Origin: Lachnospiraceae bacterium
GTDB lineage: Bacteria; Bacillota; Clostridia; Lachnospirales; Lachnospiraceae
Length of the DNA stretch: 64,000 bases
Reading direction: 5' to 3'
Assembly: GCA_015056865.1 (NCBI GenBank)
Contig: SVFM01000002.1
Span: 65,791 to 129,790 of the forward strand
Made by a program: the position numbers and the translations under genes. Positions 1,934 to 55,494 of the stretch are shown piece by piece (positions within the stretch are counted from its first letter, which is position 1; each line of letters starts with the position of its first letter). The notes below the pieces were generated by a model, which was not told the origin of the DNA, ran no database searches, and saw only the letters and a program-made list of their open reading frames with translations.

Positions 1934-2713
1934 ATGGCACAAGGAAAAGTTGAAATCTGCGGCGTCAATACATCTAAACTCCCGCTTCTTAATGCAGAAG
2001 AAAAAGAATCCCTGTTTTCACTGATCAAGCAGGGGGATTCCAAGGCCAGACAACAATATATCGAAGGCAATCTGCGGCTGGTCTTAAGCATCATCAAACG
2101 CTTTTCTTCCAGCTGCGAAAATGTGGACGACCTGTTTCAGATCGGCTGCATTGGACTGATCAAGGCCATCGACAACTTTGACACATCCTTAAATGTGAAG
2201 TTTTCCACTTACGCCGTCCCCATGATCATCGGAGAGATCCGGCGCTTCCTTAGGGACAACAATACCATACGCGTATCCCGTTCCCTGAAGGACACTGCCT
2301 ACAAGGCAATCTACACCAAGGAAGCCTTGATGAGAAAAAATGCAAAAGAACCCTCCATTGAAGAAATTGCCGCAGAGATAGGCATCTCAGCAACAGATAT
2401 CACCTATGCCCTGGATGCCATACAAAGCCCCATGAGTCTGTACGAGCCCATTTTTACCGACGGTGGGGACACGCTCTATGTCATGGATCAGATCAGCGAC
2501 AAAAAAAATAAGGAAGAGACCTGGATCGAACATCTCTCCCTTAGTGAAGCAATGAAAAAATTAAATGAGCGGGAACACGAAATCATTACCCTTCGTTTTT
2601 TTGAGGGCAAGACCCAAATGGAAGTGGCACGCATGATCGGAATCTCCCAGGCTCAAGTATCACGCCTGGAAAAAAATGCACTGCAAGTTATGCGCTCTTA
2701 CCTGGCAGGATAA
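1934..2713 (+). CDS. sigG: RNA polymerase sporulation sigma factor SigG
   Basis: KVEICGVNTSKLPLL N-terminus and sigma-70 regions 2-4 (FSTYAVPMIIGEIRRFLRD, ISQAQVSRLEKNAL). ATG at 1934 with a GGAGG 7 nt upstream. The track start at 1853 is a GTG. Confidence 0.9.
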   Translation: MAQGKVEICGVNTSKLPLLNAEEKESLFSLIKQGDSKARQQYIEGNLRLVLSIIKRFSSSCENVDDLFQIGCIGLIKAIDNFDTSLNVKFSTYAVPMIIGEIRRFLRDNNTIRVSRSLKDTAYKAIYTKEALMRKNAKEPSIEEIAAEIGISATDITYALDAIQSPMSLYEPIFTDGGDTLYVMDQISDKKNKEETWIEHLSLSEAMKKLNEREHEIITLRFFEGKTQMEVARMIGISQAQVSRLEKNALQVMRSYLAG

Positions 2714-2970
2714 CCCTTCTCAAACAAAACATCATTCATCCAGGCAACGGCATCTCCCACACCATCCTCATCAAAAGAAAACAGATGACTTGTTTTATCC
2801 GTCTCCGGAGTCGCAAAATAATTGTACGGCTCCGGCCAGACGGTGGCCTTCAACTTGGTTTCCTCTTCCACCGCCAGCTTTTCCAGGCGATACCGCATCC
2901 CCTGATAACTGCCTGTATACTCCGACTTCTTCAAAAACTCCATAGACAAAATATCATCTCTGCTTATCAT
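2698..2970 (-). CDS. hypothetical small protein (90 aa)
   Basis: ATG at 2970 preceded by GGAGGAG at 2980-2986. The longer track ORF (to 3150) reads through a palindrome arm. The 3' end overlaps the sigG 3' end convergently by 16 nt. Confidence 0.5.
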   Translation of the reverse strand: MISRDDILSMEFLKKSEYTGSYQGMRYRLEKLAVEEETKLKATVWPEPYNYFATPETDKTSHLFSFDEDGVGDAVAWMNDVLFEKGYPAR

Positions 2971-2998: not shown

Positions 2999-3214
2999 TG
3001 CGTGGGACGAAGAAAGGGCGGGGGCATGGAGGCAGGCTGAAGGGGTAGAGCCAATAGGCGGACCCTTGAAAAACGTCGGCACTTGGTTTTTTCAAGCATG
3101 TGCGCAGAAAAAGCCTTAGTACCGCTACGTTTTTCACGGAGTGAAAACACGTCCGCCTATTGGCTCTACCCCTTCAGCCTGCCTCCATGCCCCCGCCCTT
3201 TCTCGTCCCACGCA
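2999..3214. repeat. nested palindromic intergenic element, copy A (about 64-nt arms plus conserved 87-nt core)
   Basis: Arms 2999-3063 and 3151-3214 are complementary apart from one 1-nt bulge (hand alignment). Core 3064-3150 closely resembles 55314-55417 and the reverse complement of 54228-54311. Confidence 0.85.
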
Positions 3215-3225
3215 ACTATCATTTA

Positions 3226-3969
3226 TCACATCATAACCCGACTCATCTCTTTTTTCAATTGTTTCATGATCTTTTTTTCCAGCCTGGAAATATAGGACTG
3301 GGATATTCCCAGCATAGCAGCCACTTCTTTCTGTGTCATCTCCTGCCCGTCCGGCATACCAAGTCCAAATCTCAGACGTACAATGGTCTTTTCCCGATCC
3401 GACAATTTATCCACTGCTTTCATCAAAAGCTTTCTTTCCACCTCATTTTCCAAGTCTCTGTAGATCACGTCCTCTTCCGTTCCCAGAATATCCGAAAGCA
3501 GTAGTTCATTCCCATCCCAGTCTACATTCAAGGGTTCATCGATAGATACCTCCAAACGGGTTTTATTATTTCTGCGTAAATACATCAGGATTTCATTCTC
3601 TATACACCTGGAGGCATAAGTCGCTAGCTTAATGTTTTTGTCAGGTTTAAAGGTATTAATGGACTTGATCAGTCCTATTGTGCCGATAGAGATCAAATCT
3701 TCCACACCCACGCCGGTGTTATCAAATTTTTTGGCTATGTAAACCACCAGCCGCAGATTATGTTCTATCAGGATAGCCTTGGCTTCATCCTCATATTCTG
3801 TTCCCAGATCACCGATAACCTGATTTTCTTTTTCAGATTCCAGCGGCGGTGGAAGCACTTCTGTACCCCCTATGTAATGAATATCGTTTTGTTTCTGCAT
3901 CAGGAGATTTCGCTCCCGCCGTATCATTTTAAATTGTATTCTCCCGGGTATTGCCACTCTTAATATCAT
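3226..3969 (-). CDS. sigE: RNA polymerase sporulation sigma factor SigE (pro-sigma-E)
   Basis: [12 protein letters not shown] pro-sequence junction and sigma-70 regions 2-4. The ATG at 3969 follows a GGAGGA; the in-frame ATG at 3981 is an alternative start. It lies directly downstream of spoIIGA. Confidence 0.92.
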
Positions 3970-3988
3970 TGTATCCTCCATTCTACCG

Positions 3989-31472: not shown

Positions 31473-31663
31473 AATTGATTCTATCTCCTTAAATTTGCTT
31501 TATTCTCTTAAAAGTAACTGTTGTACCAGATTATCACAAAAAAGAGCCTAATACAACTCAATAAGTGTATCATAAACAGGCTCTCTTTTCAATATTTGCC
31601 ATGCTTTTTACGAAGATTTTCTTCTCACATTTTCTCACACGATACAAAAATTCATAAAATCTC

Positions 31664-31692
31664 TTGACGCATACTTAGTTGTCTGTTATACT
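31664..31692 (+). promoter_or_regulatory. sigma-A type promoter for the plus-strand islet genes
   Basis: TTGACG (31664-31669), a 17-nt spacer, then TATACT (31687-31692), about 58 nt upstream of the ATG at 31750. Confidence 0.55.
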
Positions 31693-31749
31693 TTCAGTAA
31701 GCATATTGCGCACGTGCTAATGTTTGCCTAGGGAAGGAAAGAATACAAA

Positions 31750-32259
31750 ATGGATATCATCAAAGAATTAGAAGCTATGCGTAAAAGAATCATTCAAGAG
31801 ATCAATATGGAGATTGATCTTTTGATCGAACGGGCGAAATCCGAGGGGCTGACTATGGACACTCCCATTTTTGAAGAAGCTTATGAAAGCACCTTCCCTC
31901 TGGCAGCCGGGAGCAAAATCTTCAAGGGGACCAAACCTACCAATGTCATTTTTCCGGATGGAACCTGCATCCATGTCTCCACCTGGAAGCAAGTGGTGGA
32001 TGTGATCATGACACAATGCCTCTCTGATCCGATCCACAAAAAACGCCTGTTAGACTTGTGCGGCAACATTTCCGGCAGAAAAAGGGTGCTGCTTTCCAAC
32101 ACCAGCCTTGGCATGAGAAGTCCTCTTCTGCTGTGTGAGCATCTATTCATGGAAACACACTATGACACAGAAACCCTTCTGAACGTGTTGACCTTTCGCA
32201 TCTTAGATGCGATTCAATATGACTATACCGGGATTCAGATTGCCATTCGCAATCGATAA
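31750..32259 (+). CDS. hypothetical protein (169 aa)
   Basis: Clean ORF with a GGGAAGGAAAG RBS. No family recognised by eye. Confidence 0.5.
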   Translation: MDIIKELEAMRKRIIQEINMEIDLLIERAKSEGLTMDTPIFEEAYESTFPLAAGSKIFKGTKPTNVIFPDGTCIHVSTWKQVVDVIMTQCLSDPIHKKRLLDLCGNISGRKRVLLSNTSLGMRSPLLLCEHLFMETHYDTETLLNVLTFRILDAIQYDYTGIQIAIRNR

Positions 32260-32415
32260 GAAATGGGGGAATGAACGTTGGGCAATCACCAAAAGACAAA
32301 GCAGGATCCTATCACCTCACTGCTTGAATCCGATAGTTTCTTGGATCTGGATCCAGCCATTCAAAAACAAATCATATGCTCTATCAATCAGAGCAAGGAT
32401 AAAACAGGAGGCATC

Positions 32416-32628
32416 ATGGGTAAGCTGCTTGGAAATAAGCCTGCCAATCTTGCCATACACGCCATCCTGATTCTCTGTCTCATACTCCTTCTTCTGATCC
32501 TGATCGATAATTTATATGCCTATCGGACCGGTACTGCTATCAACATGGAATTAATAAATATCATTATCCCGGTCATCACCCTGGCCATCGGATATATTAT
32601 CGGAAAAGGAACAAATGATAACTGTTAA
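32416..32628 (+). CDS. small two-TM membrane protein (70 aa)
   Basis: ATG at 32416 preceded by ACAGGAGG. The track start at 32278 is a TTG with no RBS. Two hydrophobic segments. Confidence 0.45.
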   Translation: MGKLLGNKPANLAIHAILILCLILLLLILIDNLYAYRTGTAINMELINIIIPVITLAIGYIIGKGTNDNC

Positions 32629-32630
32629 AA

Positions 32631-32665
32631 ACGAGGACAGCCTTTTCATGATCCGCTGTCCTCGT
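32631..32665. terminator. bidirectional hairpin between convergent genes
   Basis: Perfect 11-bp stem acgaggacagc/gctgtcctcgt with a 13-nt loop. Confidence 0.5.
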
Positions 32666-32670
32666 GTCCG

Positions 32671-33759
32671 TTATCTAATAAATTCTTTCCTCATGACCTC
32701 CAGGTTTTCCTTTGCAAGTTCAGAGAGTCCCTCCTCCTTTGCAATCAGTTCAATCTCCTGCAGCATCAGTTTATAATTCGCCGCCTTAGGCTCGCCGCCA
32801 TAATACCGCATGATGTTCTCTTTATAAAATTTTTTCAGAATATCATCCGGCATAGGCATAGGAGTAAACTCTTCCTCAAACTCGTATATCTTTTCTGTCT
32901 CCTCAAAGAATCCCCGTACTACATGCACCAGCGCATGGGGTTCCTTTTTTTCCACATCCTTGGTGTTGGATCCGATATCCGTTCCGTAGATGATGCGATC
33001 CGCATTTCTAGTCAAAAACTCTCTCCAGATTTCCGGCTTATCCTGAAAATCAAAGTACATGAACAAACTGGGGGTTAAGTCAAAGGAAAGATTCTCATAC
33101 TTATCCAGCCACTGCTGTGCCCAATCCGGATGCCAGGTGATAAAGGCAAAGTGGGCCACCACGATCTTTAATTTGGGGAACTTATCCATCATACTTGTAA
33201 AATCCCGGAACATATCGTGAAGATGCACAGGGCAATCCTTCACATGCCATTTTCTCTGGCTTTCCGGCACATCCTCTATGTTGCCAAAGCAGGCCTCCGG
33301 TCCTCCCAAATGAATGGTGATGGGCATGCCCGTCTCTTCCATGAATGCAAAATACTTGTCATACCTGGGATCTGCCAAAGGAATATAGGGAAATCCCTTC
33401 CGATAACATCCAATGGGATAAAACATTTTGATCCCGTCATAACCGCAGGCATGATAATACTTGGCCTGTTCCAGAAAATAGGTTCCGTCATCATCCACGG
33501 GAAAATCCTTATAGTGCAGGCCGGCGTAAGCATAGACTCTGGGACTGAGCACCTTCTTTAAGTACATAGATTTCAGATTTTCATCCCGCATTGCGCCTCC
33601 GTTTGGATTGTCATGGATGGACATAATGGCTATGGTCTCGTAGCCAAACTCCTCCAGAATCCACTTGTGAAAGGCCACGGTTTCTTCCATAGACTGCTCC
33701 CGCCAAACATGCATGTGACTGTCCCGAATAGGTATCTTCCTGTAATTGTCCTTTTCCAT
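32671..33759 (-). CDS. amidohydrolase-family (TIM-barrel metal-dependent hydrolase) protein
   Basis: IRDSHMHVW metal-binding motif near the N-terminus, ITIHLGG and VVAHFA. Resembles amidohydrolase_2. Confidence 0.65.
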   Translation of the reverse strand: MEKDNYRKIPIRDSHMHVWREQSMEETVAFHKWILEEFGYETIAIMSIHDNPNGGAMRDENLKSMYLKKVLSPRVYAYAGLHYKDFPVDDDGTYFLEQAKYYHACGYDGIKMFYPIGCYRKGFPYIPLADPRYDKYFAFMEETGMPITIHLGGPEACFGNIEDVPESQRKWHVKDCPVHLHDMFRDFTSMMDKFPKLKIVVAHFAFITWHPDWAQQWLDKYENLSFDLTPSLFMYFDFQDKPEIWREFLTRNADRIIYGTDIGSNTKDVEKKEPHALVHVVRGFFEETEKIYEFEEEFTPMPMPDDILKKFYKENIMRYYGGEPKAANYKLMLQEIELIAKEEGLSELAKENLEVMRKEFIR

Positions 33760-33801
33760 TTCGTTTTCCTCCGGATATTCGTTTATCTTTTAAAACTTCG
33801 T

Positions 33802-35022
33802 TCACTGTACGTTTAATATGCCGCCGCTCACATAGATATATTTACCGGCCAGATAGTGCTGCTTGATGGCCCGCATCAGGCTGGTATCCTCCGGCAGGCT
33901 GGCATAATCTTTACATGGCTTTTTGAACACAAATTGAAATACATCATCATATTCACTATACTCATAGGGATATAGCACATAACTTTTTTGAAACTTTGCA
34001 ATATTGGAATCCTCTTTTACCATGCCCATCAGCTGTGAATCCATCAGCCAGGACTGACAGAAAAAGGCCTTATAGGTAAACTCCGGATAACACTCCCGCA
34101 AGATGCGCTTTACTTCCTCATAAGACCCTCGGATTTCTTCCTCATCAAAAGATCCGCCACCCGGTATATGTACACTGATGACCGGATCTCCATGCTCCAA
34201 AAACTTCTCCCAAGTATCCTTGAAAAGTTTTATCTTCTCCTGCCGGATATAACCCCTTTCATCCACCGGATATCCTTCGTAAAACTCCTCTGTTTCCAGC
34301 ACTTCGCAGTAAAATGCCCCTTCTGTATCCGGCAAGCCTTTATAATGGATCCCCACACCGCTGGGATGGGCCGTCATCTTATCTGCAAGTATGCGAATCC
34401 TGCCGGTTTGATCTTTAAAGGCCATGATCCTGCCCAAAAAAGCCTGTCGCATCTCAAAGTTTAATCTGCCCACACGCATGATACTGTTCTGGATACACTG
34501 CAGCATCCAGCAAAAGTATAAGCTGTTATAAGCCGGATACCCCAGACGTTGCTCCATGGTAGTGAGGATACCCTCGTATTGCTTCAGTGCATATTCCAAG
34601 ATTTCTCCGGGCACCTTTCTTTCCTGCATGTTCTCTATAGCCTTGTCTACCAAAGGAAACAGTGCAAACAAGGGTGCAAGATCATAAGCCGGTTTTCCCA
34701 CTCCCTGCTCCATCCGGGGCAGAACCAGATCACTGTAGATCTCATCTGAGCTAAAACGCTGGGCCGCGCAGCTTAACATGCACACAAAAAGAAGAAGGGC
34801 ATCATTCTTTGCCAGCAACTGCCTGGCATGATCGATCTGGGCCACATATTTGTGAAACAAAGCGTGCTTTTGATGAAACGCCTCAAACACCGCCTTCTCA
34901 CAAAAAGGAAAACCCTGCTGATATAAAGCCACTCCTTCTTCATACACCATGGGAAAAACATGGGGTATACTGTCCATCCTTAACTCCGCAAAAAGTTCCT
35001 CAAGACTGAATATTCTTCTCAT
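33802..35022 (-). CDS. hypothetical protein (possibly GNAT-like acyltransferase-domain family)
   Basis: 406-aa ORF. The C-terminal SVHIPGGGSF..ECYPEF..FFCQSWLMD pattern recalls acyltransferase-domain proteins. Function assignment is weak. Confidence 0.35.
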   Translation of the reverse strand: MRRIFSLEELFAELRMDSIPHVFPMVYEEGVALYQQGFPFCEKAVFEAFHQKHALFHKYVAQIDHARQLLAKNDALLLFVCMLSCAAQRFSSDEIYSDLVLPRMEQGVGKPAYDLAPLFALFPLVDKAIENMQERKVPGEILEYALKQYEGILTTMEQRLGYPAYNSLYFCWMLQCIQNSIMRVGRLNFEMRQAFLGRIMAFKDQTGRIRILADKMTAHPSGVGIHYKGLPDTEGAFYCEVLETEEFYEGYPVDERGYIRQEKIKLFKDTWEKFLEHGDPVISVHIPGGGSFDEEEIRGSYEEVKRILRECYPEFTYKAFFCQSWLMDSQLMGMVKEDSNIAKFQKSYVLYPYEYSEYDDVFQFVFKKPCKDYASLPEDTSLMRAIKQHYLAGKYIYVSGGILNVQ

Positions 35023-47221: not shown

Positions 47222-47248
47222 AGAACCCTCCATTTATATTACTCTTTT

Positions 47249-47338
47249 AGGAACGGAAAAGCGGAGTGTCAGAGTCCAAAGGGCCTGAAAGATTGGTGAA
47301 AGGCCCTTTGGACTCTGACACTCCGCTTTTCCGTTCCT
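47249..47338. repeat. perfect 38-bp-stem palindrome, copy D (no conserved core)
   Basis: 47249-47286 is exactly complementary to 47301-47338, with a 14-nt loop. The arm carries gcggagtg, which resembles the cacggagtg of the A/B/C cores. Confidence 0.85.
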
Positions 47339-47383
47339 TACAGTTCTATTCTACTCTATTTTCTACTACTTTGCCACACTAAT

Positions 47384-54148: not shown

Positions 54149-54387
54149 TTTTTTTACCTTTCCTTGTATTAGACTGAAAGTGGGTGTCAAAACTGAGTGG
54201 CCCGGAAGGTGCCGGCTAAAGTCCGGCTCAGGCACGCTTTCGCTCCGTGAAAAACGTAACAGTACTAAGCTTTTTTGGCGCGGTAACCGCTTGGTTTTTC
54301 AAGGTCCTTACGCCGGACTTTAGCCGGCACCTTCCGGGCCACCCGGTTTCAACAACACTTGAATCTATTACAAGGAAAGGTAAAAAA
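54149..54387. repeat. nested palindromic intergenic element, copy B (core in reverse orientation)
   Basis: Perfect 31-bp arms 54197-54227 and 54312-54342. Imperfect outer arms extend to identical 19-nt ends (ttttttacctttccttgta and its complement). The core at 54228-54311 is the reverse complement of part of the A/C core. Confidence 0.85.
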
Positions 54388-54388
54388 G

Positions 54389-55210
54389 ATGCCTATTACT
54401 GCTGATTTTCATTTACATACCGCTCATTCCGCTGACAGCCAGGCTCCCATGGAGTCCATGATAGAAAGTGCCATTGCTAAGGGCTTAACCCACATGTGCA
54501 TCACAGAACATATGGACCCGGATTTCCCCCCCAGCCAGGACATCCCCAATGCAGACTTTTGGGTTGTCAACACAGATGCTTATCTCTATGACCTGATCTG
54601 CTGCCGGGAAAAGTATGCCTCACAGATTTCCATCTCCTTCGGCATTGAACTGGGTCTACAGCCAAGTATTGCCAAAAAGCTGGCGGCTTATGCCAAATCC
54701 TATGATTTTGACTTTATCATCGGCTCCACCCATGTGGCAGACGATATGGATCCCTATCACTGTTCCTTTTTTGAAGGACGCACTGAGGAGGAAGGTTATC
54801 GCTCCTATTTCCAGACCACCGTCGACAACATCAAATCCTTTTCCAACTTTGATGTTTACGGACATCTGGATTACGTGGTCCGCTACGGCCCCAATATGGA
54901 CCGGGATTATTCCTATGAAAAATATAAAGATCTGTTTGATCAGATGCTGATGCTTTTGCTGGAAAAAGAAAAAGGCATTGAGATCAATACCGGTGGTCTA
55001 CGCAAAGGCTTAAGAGAAGCCAATCCCTGCATGGATGTGCTGAAACGCTATAGACAGCTGGGCGGTGAGATCATCACCGTAGGCTCCGACGCCCACAAAC
55101 CAGAACAGGTGGCCGAGCACTTCCACCGGGCGGCAGATATGCTGCTGGAGTGTGGATTCCAATATTACACGATCTACCAAAACCGCACCCCGGAATTCCT
55201 GCGGCTGTGA
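54389..55210 (+). CDS. PHP-family histidinol-phosphatase-like hydrolase
   Basis: ITADFHLHTAHSADS, ITEHMD and GSDAH metal-ligand motifs. ATG at 54389. Confidence 0.85.
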   Translation: MPITADFHLHTAHSADSQAPMESMIESAIAKGLTHMCITEHMDPDFPPSQDIPNADFWVVNTDAYLYDLICCREKYASQISISFGIELGLQPSIAKKLAAYAKSYDFDFIIGSTHVADDMDPYHCSFFEGRTEEEGYRSYFQTTVDNIKSFSNFDVYGHLDYVVRYGPNMDRDYSYEKYKDLFDQMLMLLLEKEKGIEINTGGLRKGLREANPCMDVLKRYRQLGGEIITVGSDAHKPEQVAEHFHRAADMLLECGFQYYTIYQNRTPEFLRL

Positions 55211-55233
55211 TATTGCCTTTTTCATTATTATAT

Positions 55234-55494
55234 CTTATAATGAATTACGGCTCGCAGACAAGCCTTAGACAGTGTCGGGGAGGGCAAGTCGGAAAGAGAT
55301 ATAAGGTTTCCGGCATAAGGCCCTTAAAAAACGTCAGTACTTAGATTTTTCAAGCAATTGTGCGCCGAAAAATCTTTAGTACTGCTACGCTTTTTACGGA
55401 GTGAAAACGTGCCTGTTCCGGAAACCTTATACCTCTTTCCGACTTGCCCTCCCCGACACTGTCTAAGGCCTGCCTGCAAACCGTAACTATAATG
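55234..55494. repeat. nested palindromic intergenic element, copy C
   Basis: Arms 55254-55313 and 55418-55477 are complementary with 3 mismatches. Weaker outer pairing extends to about 55234 and 55494. The core at 55314-55417 is roughly four-fifths identical to the copy A core by eye. Confidence 0.85.

Follow-up and report, generated by a model that had tools for sequence, protein, structure and literature searches.

In a 64,000-nt stretch of the genome of a Lachnospiraceae bacterium (assembly GCA_015056865.1, contig SVFM01000002.1, positions 65,791 to 129,790; hereafter the window) we identified three intact copies (A, B and C) and one remnant (D) of a repeat in which two long and almost perfectly complementary arms enclose a conserved core of about 90 nt. 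[quoted passage not shown] The elements are probably non-autonomous DNA transposons, that is, MITE-like palindromic repeats found only in Lachnospiraceae-type Clostridia, in which the arms drift and copying from one arm to the other keeps the palindrome. Of the properties that characterise MITEs, the family shows small size, inverted repeats at its ends, duplicated target sites, many copies and polymorphism for presence or absence.

Copy A (2999-3214) consists, on the plus strand, of a left arm at 2999..3063, a core at 3064..3150 and a right arm at 3151..3214. The inverted-repeat search found 53-nt arms (3011-3063 and 3151-3203) that are 100% complementary and separated by a spacer of 87 nt; through one bulge the repeat reaches 2999-3214, and it extends weakly to 2990 and 3223. 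As single-stranded DNA this copy folds at -114.8 kcal/mol (z = -20.6) and as RNA of the sigE-sense strand at -191.1 kcal/mol (z = -23.7). Copy B (54150-54387, minus strand) is composed of two inverted repeats. Its first arm, 54150..54227, has an outer part at 54150-54178 and an inner part at 54185-54227, and the outer part of its second arm, 54312..54387, takes in the site at which ribosomes bind for the PHP phosphatase gene, whose ATG is at 54389. The core between them (54228..54311) is missing 17-18 nt of its 5' half. Copy C (55244-55487, plus strand) has 69-nt arms that are 93% complementary, the left one (55244..55313) starting with TTACGG and the right one (55418..55487) ending in CCGTAAC, around a core at 55314..55417. 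Remnant D (47244..47343, plus strand) retains 43-nt arms and a 14-nt loop and has lost the core, a full element being present in the sister genome described below. The window contains six long inverted repeats, none of which lies outside the element loci A-D.

The core recurs in all three copies. A 26-nt degenerate core pattern matched the window three times (3116-3141 and 55376-55401 on the plus strand, 54243-54268 on the minus strand) versus 0 matches expected, nhmmer gave E values of 4e-25, 2e-24 and 4e-16, and the covariance model found only A (3051-3169, 103 bits, with the model orientation antisense to sigE), C (107 bits) and B (52 bits). Core length varies between ~87 and 105 nt across the window copies. 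The arms of different copies are 0.50-0.62 identical, which is the level of shuffled sequences (means 0.50-0.60), and showed no significant local similarity to 80 other arms, whereas the two arms of each copy are 90-100% self-complementary. These results bear out what a sequence-only reading of the window had described: 64/65-nt arms with a single bulge around an 87-nt core in copy A, a second core in the same orientation at 55314-55417 and a third, reversed and shorter in one half, at 54228-54311, and arms that are unrelated between copies yet complementary within each of them.

In the orientation of the pattern TTAGTACYGYTACGYTTTTYACGGAG, the core is an asymmetric module of three helices, P2, P3 and P4, with the arms forming P1. 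Helix P2 pairs CCTTGAAAAACGT-CRGYAC with GTACYG-YT-ACGTTTTTCACGG and is irregular at fixed points, where it has a T-C mismatch, a bulge of YT and, in most cases, a C-A mismatch. It is followed by the internal loop TTRG/TTAG and by the apical hairpin P3, which is free in sequence and length (23 to ~117 nt) with its pairing always kept. On one side of the module stands the mini-hairpin P4, of the form G[C/T]-GNRA-[G/A]C, the loop of which is always G/A-N-R-A (GAAA, GAGA, GCAA, GGGA, GCGA, AAAA or AAGA). The oligonucleotide d(GCGAAAGC) is a classic and very stable DNA mini-hairpin. In copy A the two strands of P2 are located at 3064-3082 and 3119-3139, P3 at 3085-3115 and P4, GTGAAAAC, at 3141-3148, all on the plus strand. 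The small hairpins previously noticed in this core do exist, but the pairing ttttcac/gtgaaaa is not conserved in the other copies, the GNRA mini-hairpin being the one that is; the comparative fold consists of P2, P3 and P4.

The fold is strongly supported by covariation. With a covariance model trained on 24 diverse copies, and covariation measured on 80 distinct copies, 96.8% of the cells were paired, compared with 41-50% when partners were slid, 21 of the 32 pairs had changed on both sides, and the covariation score was 0.464 as opposed to 0.153 after shuffling. G-U intermediates are almost absent, as illustrated by pair 32/182 (GC 47, AU 32, other 1, none of them G-U). The opposite strand of the core scores only ~27 bits versus ~100, hence its asymmetry, and the length variation of P3 together with the covariation pattern excludes a conserved reading frame. 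The 5' arms tend toward G-richness.

Some lineages show particular forms of P3. Seven stretches of Ca. Fimimorpha (L010, L032, L035, L037, L042, L072 and L079) carry the apex variants GCTCTTCAAGAGC, GCCGGACACGGC, GCCCTTCGGGC and GCTCCTTAGGAGC, all of them compensated; these arise among otherwise near-identical copies of one genome and reproduce in miniature the phenomenon seen in the arms. The RGIG3866 copies (L006, L050, L058, L059 and L078) have an extra hairpin of ~60 nt inside P3 and arms of ~150 nt, and two RUI181 copies (L007, L055) present tandem partial duplications of P3.

The scan with the core pattern, which covered one genome per species, retrieved 88 genomic stretches from at least 27 genomes. 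The hosts were Butyrivibrio, Blautia, Acetatifactor, [Clostridium] symbiosum, Ca. Fimimorpha and metagenome-assembled genomes (MAGs) of unclassified Lachnospiraceae from the gut and rumen, and no others. The covariance model recognized 81 full copies in 70 stretches, often with a second copy within 8 kb. No annotated family of non-coding RNAs or repeats was found to match: nothing in the window reached the Rfam gathering score, and searches of the window and of the core alone at E up to 10 yielded only generic long-hairpin (plant miRNA precursor) or chance matches. Moreover, copy A had no BLAST counterpart in collections of phages or plasmids, the core pattern was absent from 2.9 million viral contigs, and the literal element sequence had 0 occurrences in the papers searched. 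The idea that the arms could act as guides against foreign DNA was dropped since they had no phage or plasmid matches. The known ribozyme cores, retron RNA and the IS110 bridge RNA were also set aside, as the hammerhead motif CUGAUGA is absent, no reverse transcriptase or recombinase is encoded nearby, and the internal loops are too small. About 20 contigs of the one Fimimorpha MAG (DVJD01; L001, L004, L005, L015, L019, L026, L029, L034 and others) start or stop inside the core, and several metagenome contigs of the window organism terminate at element A, meaning that the repeat breaks short-read assemblies.

The elements are non-coding units of ~140-310 nt, reaching ~460 nt in one lineage, which is within the size of MITEs (under ~500 bp), with arms of 43-70 nt (maximum 150 nt). 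All copies are intergenic and they occur in every gene arrangement. In Butyrivibrio RUI181, in RGIG4572 and in Fimimorpha the arms are common to the copies and have sharp, shared ends. Butyrivibrio copies have ends that read GTWAC. Those of RUI181 are GTTACAATTCAG.../...CTGAATTGTAAC, and a copy ending in GTAACAG.../...CTGCTAC (L048) is bordered by a perfect 8-bp duplication, agccaaaa; perfect 8-bp duplications were also found in L055 (ttctatga) and L007 (ctaaacgg). In the window, copy C has a terminus similar to these GTWAC ends (TTACGG...CCGTAA(C)) and is flanked on both sides, outside the arms, by TATAATG (55235..55241 and 55488..55494; 7/8 bp match), while no target duplication is recognisable for copies A and B. 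The RGIG4572 lineage has different ends, CAATGKCAT, and duplications of 10 bp (L054) and 9 bp (L017) that correspond to the loops of small terminator-like host hairpins. Solo RUI181-type termini (GTTACAATTCAG...) stand without a core nearby at L053:888 and L086:1529 and are probably truncated copies.

Copy number and polymorphism could also be established. In the isolate run X13 the element is read at a depth of 650-1070 and its flanks at 13-16, which implies ~50-70 copies per genome. Site A is empty in one relative (L114) and site B in another (L100). The sequence-only reading had regarded the family as the opposite of an ordinary MITE, whose terminal repeats are conserved and whose interior varies. 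This applies to the window genome, where the centre is conserved and the arms are copy-specific, but does not extend to the other genomes, in which arms, ends and 8-bp duplications are conserved as in an ordinary MITE; the survey of arm conservation that it had proposed did find arms shared between copies in several of them, so that the outcome it had named as contrary to its reading was obtained in part. The sharing of arms elsewhere can be explained by a recent burst, and their divergence in the window organism by the copies being old residents.

Four faecal metagenomes carry the window organism at ~5x. The perfect part of arm A was covered there at a depth of 9.6-12.2, about 2x the flank, as would be the case for the two arms collapsed on each other, the arm being single-copy. 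The arms of copy B had depths of 3-7 even at 80% likeness, that is ~1x and single-copy. The conserved half of the core, on the other hand, reached summed depths of 30-480, with continuations beyond the core that disagree. In the window organism the arms are thus copy-specific and the core is multi-copy.

The orthologous loci of close relatives, obtained through a protein index, are informative about the origin of the arms. They come from a sister genome (GCA_052848995.1; DNA 90-95% identical, third codon positions 4-14% different) and from a more distant relative (PHP 71% and SpoIIGA 69% identical); a metagenome scan with the PHP protein for close orthologous loci returned only relatives at <= 66% identity, none of them with cores. 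In the distant relative (L114) site A is empty: the sigE stop is followed by 30 nt and the start of the next open reading frame (ORF), with no arm-like sequence and neither gene end duplicated, so that the element must have brought its arms along instead of copying them from the flanks. In the sister (L117) the site is occupied; its flanks are conserved, as are the arms over their outer 12 nt. The arms of the two genomes are alignable along their whole length, are ~65% identical and differ by ~10 indels, and they are near-perfect palindromes in both (63 nt with one mismatch in the sister, 64/65 nt in the window). This locus indicates that some process copies one arm from the other: arms ~35% different, with ~10 indels, each still form a palindrome of 63-65 nt with one imperfection. 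The core at this site is inverted between the two genomes, and its 87 nt show 10 differences, of which 6 are in P3 (including two compensated pairs), 1 in the P4 loop, 1 in the bulge and 2 at the junction.

At site B the sister has a full core, relative to which the window copy carries a 17-nt deletion. The arms differ by ~13%, and 5 of the ~15 changed pairs are altered on both sides. The distant relative (L103) has a core in the same place and orientation; the outer 25 nt of its arms are shared with the window, but the middle is not. At site C the sister has suffered an internal deletion of 162 nt at the microhomology CCTTA, and at site D it is the window that has lost 112 nt, including the core, between direct repeats AGGCCCTT; both deletions are located at short direct repeats. 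Apart from D, no further copies or sister-specific insertions were found in ~44 kb of the sister contig. The idea that the arms hypermutate, at a rate much higher than neutral, was considered and rejected, as third-codon divergence is 4-14% and the 13% of locus B is about neutral. Only the arms of locus A are clearly faster than third-codon divergence, and the excess is rich in indels.

According to the favoured reading, each element would be one long hairpin-shaped unit, made of two arms and the central module of ~90 nt, which is inserted whole, arms included, by a transposase supplied in trans. Insertion would generate the 8-bp duplications beside GTWAC ends, and those of 9-10 bp in one lineage. 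We propose a DDE-type transposase as the mobilising enzyme, the 8-bp duplication being compatible with several insertion sequence (IS) families. Once inserted, the arms would be under no sequence constraint and would drift quickly, with many indels, while now and then one arm would serve as the template for recopying its partner, through template switching within the molecule or through repair templated by the hairpin, so that the palindrome stays near-perfect. Recopying of this kind is the only simple way to keep ~20 changes per lineage, substitutions and indels together, perfectly mirrored, and it would also explain the covariation by Watson-Crick pairs only and the inversion of the spacer. 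Recombination between the arms would flip the core, and slippage between short direct repeats would delete central parts. The persistence of the core itself may reflect a requirement for it in cis during propagation, where the mobilising protein or a host protein could, for instance, bind its structure.

Several observations weigh against this explanation. No target duplication could be recognized in 46 of 61 copies, as judged by a crude scan whose control was similar except for long matches, and a terminal-motif search of ~0.7 Mb for an autonomous element with matching ends found none, just solo or truncated termini. At site A there are 0 differences between the window and the sister at paired P2 positions, and a purely selfish element leaves this invariance unexplained. 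The evidence for arm copying in resident copies comes mainly from one locus, A, and the arms of locus B, with ~10% mismatch, look like independently decaying repeats. Sharp borders between conserved and hypervariable arm segments (LOHA14, site B) suit drift and repeated insertion into older palindromes equally well. In addition, no window sequence was found in the RNA runs, and the GNRA-type loop and tandem G-A motifs appear RNA-like.

This last feature keeps alive, as an alternative that we judge unlikely, the possibility that the core acts as a non-coding RNA with a defined structure, be it a regulator in cis or a small RNA, with a three-way junction, a GNRA loop and a k-turn-like G-A tandem, closed by the arms as its stem. 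The RNA gene or leader would have spread by duplication, and the stem would be selected for RNA folding, for instance as an RNase III site or a stabiliser. The strong covariation in P1, P2, P3 and P4, the invariable form of the P4 loop and the unchanged P2 of the orthologous A copies all agree with an RNA. Moreover, A and C are each located a short distance downstream of a promoter-like site and so would be transcribed, and fragments of the Butyrivibrio element were detected in three rumen metatranscriptomes. However, these consisted of a few low-depth contig fragments of that element only, and no Rfam family was recovered even at E = 10. The covariation is of the Watson-Crick type with almost no G-U, and the mismatches of the arms (GT 105, AC 79, other 247) show no preference for G-U. 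The two strands are alike in predicted RNA stability, the sense strand being better in 35 cases and the antisense in 22 for P3, and in 32 versus 26 for the core. With respect to the neighbouring genes, the copies between co-directional genes are 20 in sense and 11 in antisense, a weak and not significant bias, and many others lie between convergent (16) or divergent (14) genes. Besides being flipped at the same locus between sister genomes, the core is lost or damaged at 3 of 4 loci in one of two close relatives, and both the duplicated targets and the presence of 50-70 copies in a genome are hallmarks of a mobile element.

Covariation restricted to Watson-Crick pairs, with no bias in G-U, strand or orientation, points to maintenance of the palindrome at the DNA level, which fits better than a strand-specific RNA; the GNRA-type loop leaves the RNA a live alternative. 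The selection for a long RNA stem that had been envisaged from the sequence alone is therefore not supported, given the absence of G-U preference, the equality of strands, the near-random orientation and the core inversion between sisters. In G-U tolerance, strand asymmetry and orientation the family did not behave as a strand-specific functional RNA. Nor did it resemble an intrinsic terminator, with its short GC-rich stem, loop of 3-8 nt and T-tract: a terminator scan of A, B and C found no terminator-like site, and a run of T is absent after the arms of both A and C.

It is also conceivable, though in our opinion improbable, that the mobile unit comprises only the core and short inner arms, and that it inserts by preference into the loops of existing hairpins such as terminators or core-less remnants. 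Cycles of deletion and re-insertion would then let the palindrome grow by accretion, the arms representing older sequence of the locus and the core being in every case the most recent addition. The L054 and L017 copies described above, whose duplicated target is the loop of a host hairpin, are what such a unit would leave, and remnant D is a core-less palindrome of the re-usable kind. In RGIG4572 and LOHA14 the copies share an inner element and have outer stems that are copy-specific and complementary (scores 16-70 versus 8-22 in controls). In the same sense, the window and L103 share at site B the outer 25 nt and the core and not the middle of the arms, and site A retains the outer 12 nt around a different interior of flipped orientation. 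Nevertheless, the empty site A of L114 has no hairpin, and the duplications of copy C and of the Butyrivibrio copies lie outside the full arms, so whole palindromes move. The full-length alignment of the sister A arms (~65% identity plus indels) speaks for divergence in situ and against replacement. In addition, the LOHA14 junctions are continuous inverted repeats without internal duplications, the outer stems, with 20-35 perfect base pairs, exceed the length expected of natural terminators, and the flanks of RUI181 and Fimimorpha copies are not complementary.

With similarly low probability, the core could be a structure-specific recognition module, read as a folded single strand or extruded cruciform through its fixed T-C mismatch, 2-nt bulge, C-A mismatch and GNRA-type mini-hairpin, for a mechanism of mobilisation or replication in which hairpin-primed or snap-back synthesis rebuilds the second arm on the first, and which maybe homes to hairpin loops. 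If this were true, the family would represent a class of mobile elements defined by its centre and not by its terminal repeats, and the hypervariable yet perfect arms would be a by-product of the propagation mechanism.

The remaining suggestion, already made from the sequence alone, that the arms arise when an inserted core causes the neighbouring flank to be duplicated in inverted form, is very improbable and largely refuted for A and C: the outer arm of copy B does contain the native PHP ribosome-binding site on one side and an inverted copy of it on the other, but the 30 nt of the empty site A are unlike the 64-nt arms and no duplicate of either gene end is present there, arms are single-copy apart from their own partner, the duplications around whole elements (such as the 7/8-bp one outside the arms of copy C) are direct and not inverted, and arms are common to several loci in other genomes.

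Seen as MITE-like transposons, the elements can be compared with the Correia elements of Neisseria, ERIC of enterobacteria, and RUP, BOX and SPRITE of pneumococcus, which are likewise small, non-coding, intergenic, multi-copy and palindromic, with direct duplications and a mobilisation in trans that would apply here too. ERIC is said to possess a conserved central inverted repeat. The present elements share with Correia and ERIC the potential to form a hairpin over the whole length and the capacity to invert, and with ERIC a conserved centre. In contrast to all these families, they have an asymmetric, covarying centre of ~90 nt conserved across genera, and arms that are unalignable between lineages, and in the window genome between copies too, with termini that likewise differ between lineages; no sequence similarity to any of them was found. 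Correia elements can invert and, when transcribed, are cut by RNase III at their paired repeats, and known palindromic MITEs insert near or into one another (PMC10969869). Head-to-head pairs of our elements, 100-400 nt apart and each member with its own arms, were observed in four genomes (L047 602-985, L059 1863-2587, L079 5825-6313 and L010 25-369) and resemble such clustering. In the 2024 review cited for these MITEs the terms Clostridia and Firmicutes have 0 occurrences (PMC10969869).

The REP/REPIN elements with their RAYT proteins and the palindromes derived from IS200/IS605 vary in stem sequence from genome to genome and keep their structure, by which they are supposed to be recognized, and some insertion sequences target the loops of REP-type hairpins (PMC3337134, PMC12288879). 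The likeness to our family lies in the hairpin repeats and in the variation of the stem between genomes. Those systems, however, have stems of 20-40 nt, a GTAG-type tetranucleotide, no target duplication and a Y1 (HUH) transposase gene, whereas here we found 8-bp duplications, GTWAC ends, arms of 43-70 nt and no linked Y1 gene. Membership in REP/REPIN or IS200/IS605 was thus rejected on account of the 8-bp duplications and the long arms. As for the arms, template switching at quasipalindromes has been described to produce multi-base mirrored changes, perfect stems in one event, homogenisation, repeat growth and spacer inversion (PMC8794818, PMC8604942, PMC13100816, PMC7202029). It is documented for short repeats of E. 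coli, yeast and RNA genes; in our case it would act on the 60-70-nt arms of a mobile element. Eukaryotic foldback transposons have very long and internally variable inverted arms around a central loop, and integron attC sites are recognised by their fold and not by their sequence. Foldback elements differ from ours in that they are not known to have a conserved structured centre, and attC sites in being single-strand recombination sites of cassette arrays, without a conserved centre or duplications.

Copy A is placed within a minus-strand unit formed by spoIIGA, sigE, the element and an ORF of 90 amino acids. The sigE gene (3226..3981, minus strand; Pfam Sigma70_r2/r4), which encodes 247 amino acids in other assemblies, lies upstream of the element and is preceded by the gene of the SpoIIGA peptidase U4. 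The conserved 90-amino acid ORF (2698..2970, minus strand) lies downstream and directly follows sigE in the relative with the empty site. Read on the minus strand, the sigE stop (3226-3228) is 11-12 nt from the arm end at 3214, and 28 nt separate the arm start at 2999 from the ATG of the small ORF (2970-2968), the distances of 12 and 28 nt given originally being therefore correct. In the 3' end of sigE a promoter-like sequence, TTGAAA-17-TATGAT (3258-3230, minus strand), is aimed at element A and the 90-amino acid ORF. A second one, TTGCCT-17-TATAAT, occurs at 55213-55241, and its -10 hexamer is part of the left target duplication of element C, which from this site would be transcribed as the 5' leader of a glycosyltransferase gene. 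We also observed that ~3.5 kb of the window (31493-35020, with minus-strand ORFs at 32671-33759 and 33802-35022) are absent in the sister, where the flanks are joined directly.

The interest of this family comes from its inversion of the usual MITE logic. If confirmed, it would be a widespread repeat family for the Lachnospiraceae, a dominant group of the gut and rumen in which small mobile repeats are essentially undescribed, as well as a practical problem, as the element breaks metagenome assemblies. It also offers a natural system for following palindrome dynamics at orthologous loci, where arms are rewritten and yet remain perfect, the centre flips and deletions occur at microhomologies, and these dynamics bear on how bacteria tolerate and remodel long inverted repeats. 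A conserved centre of 90 nt between free arms raises the question of its reader, be it a transposase, a host protein or an RNA partner. In the window genome, copies immediately follow sigE and occupy the 5' regions of two further genes, and they may affect the expression of sporulation and envelope genes.

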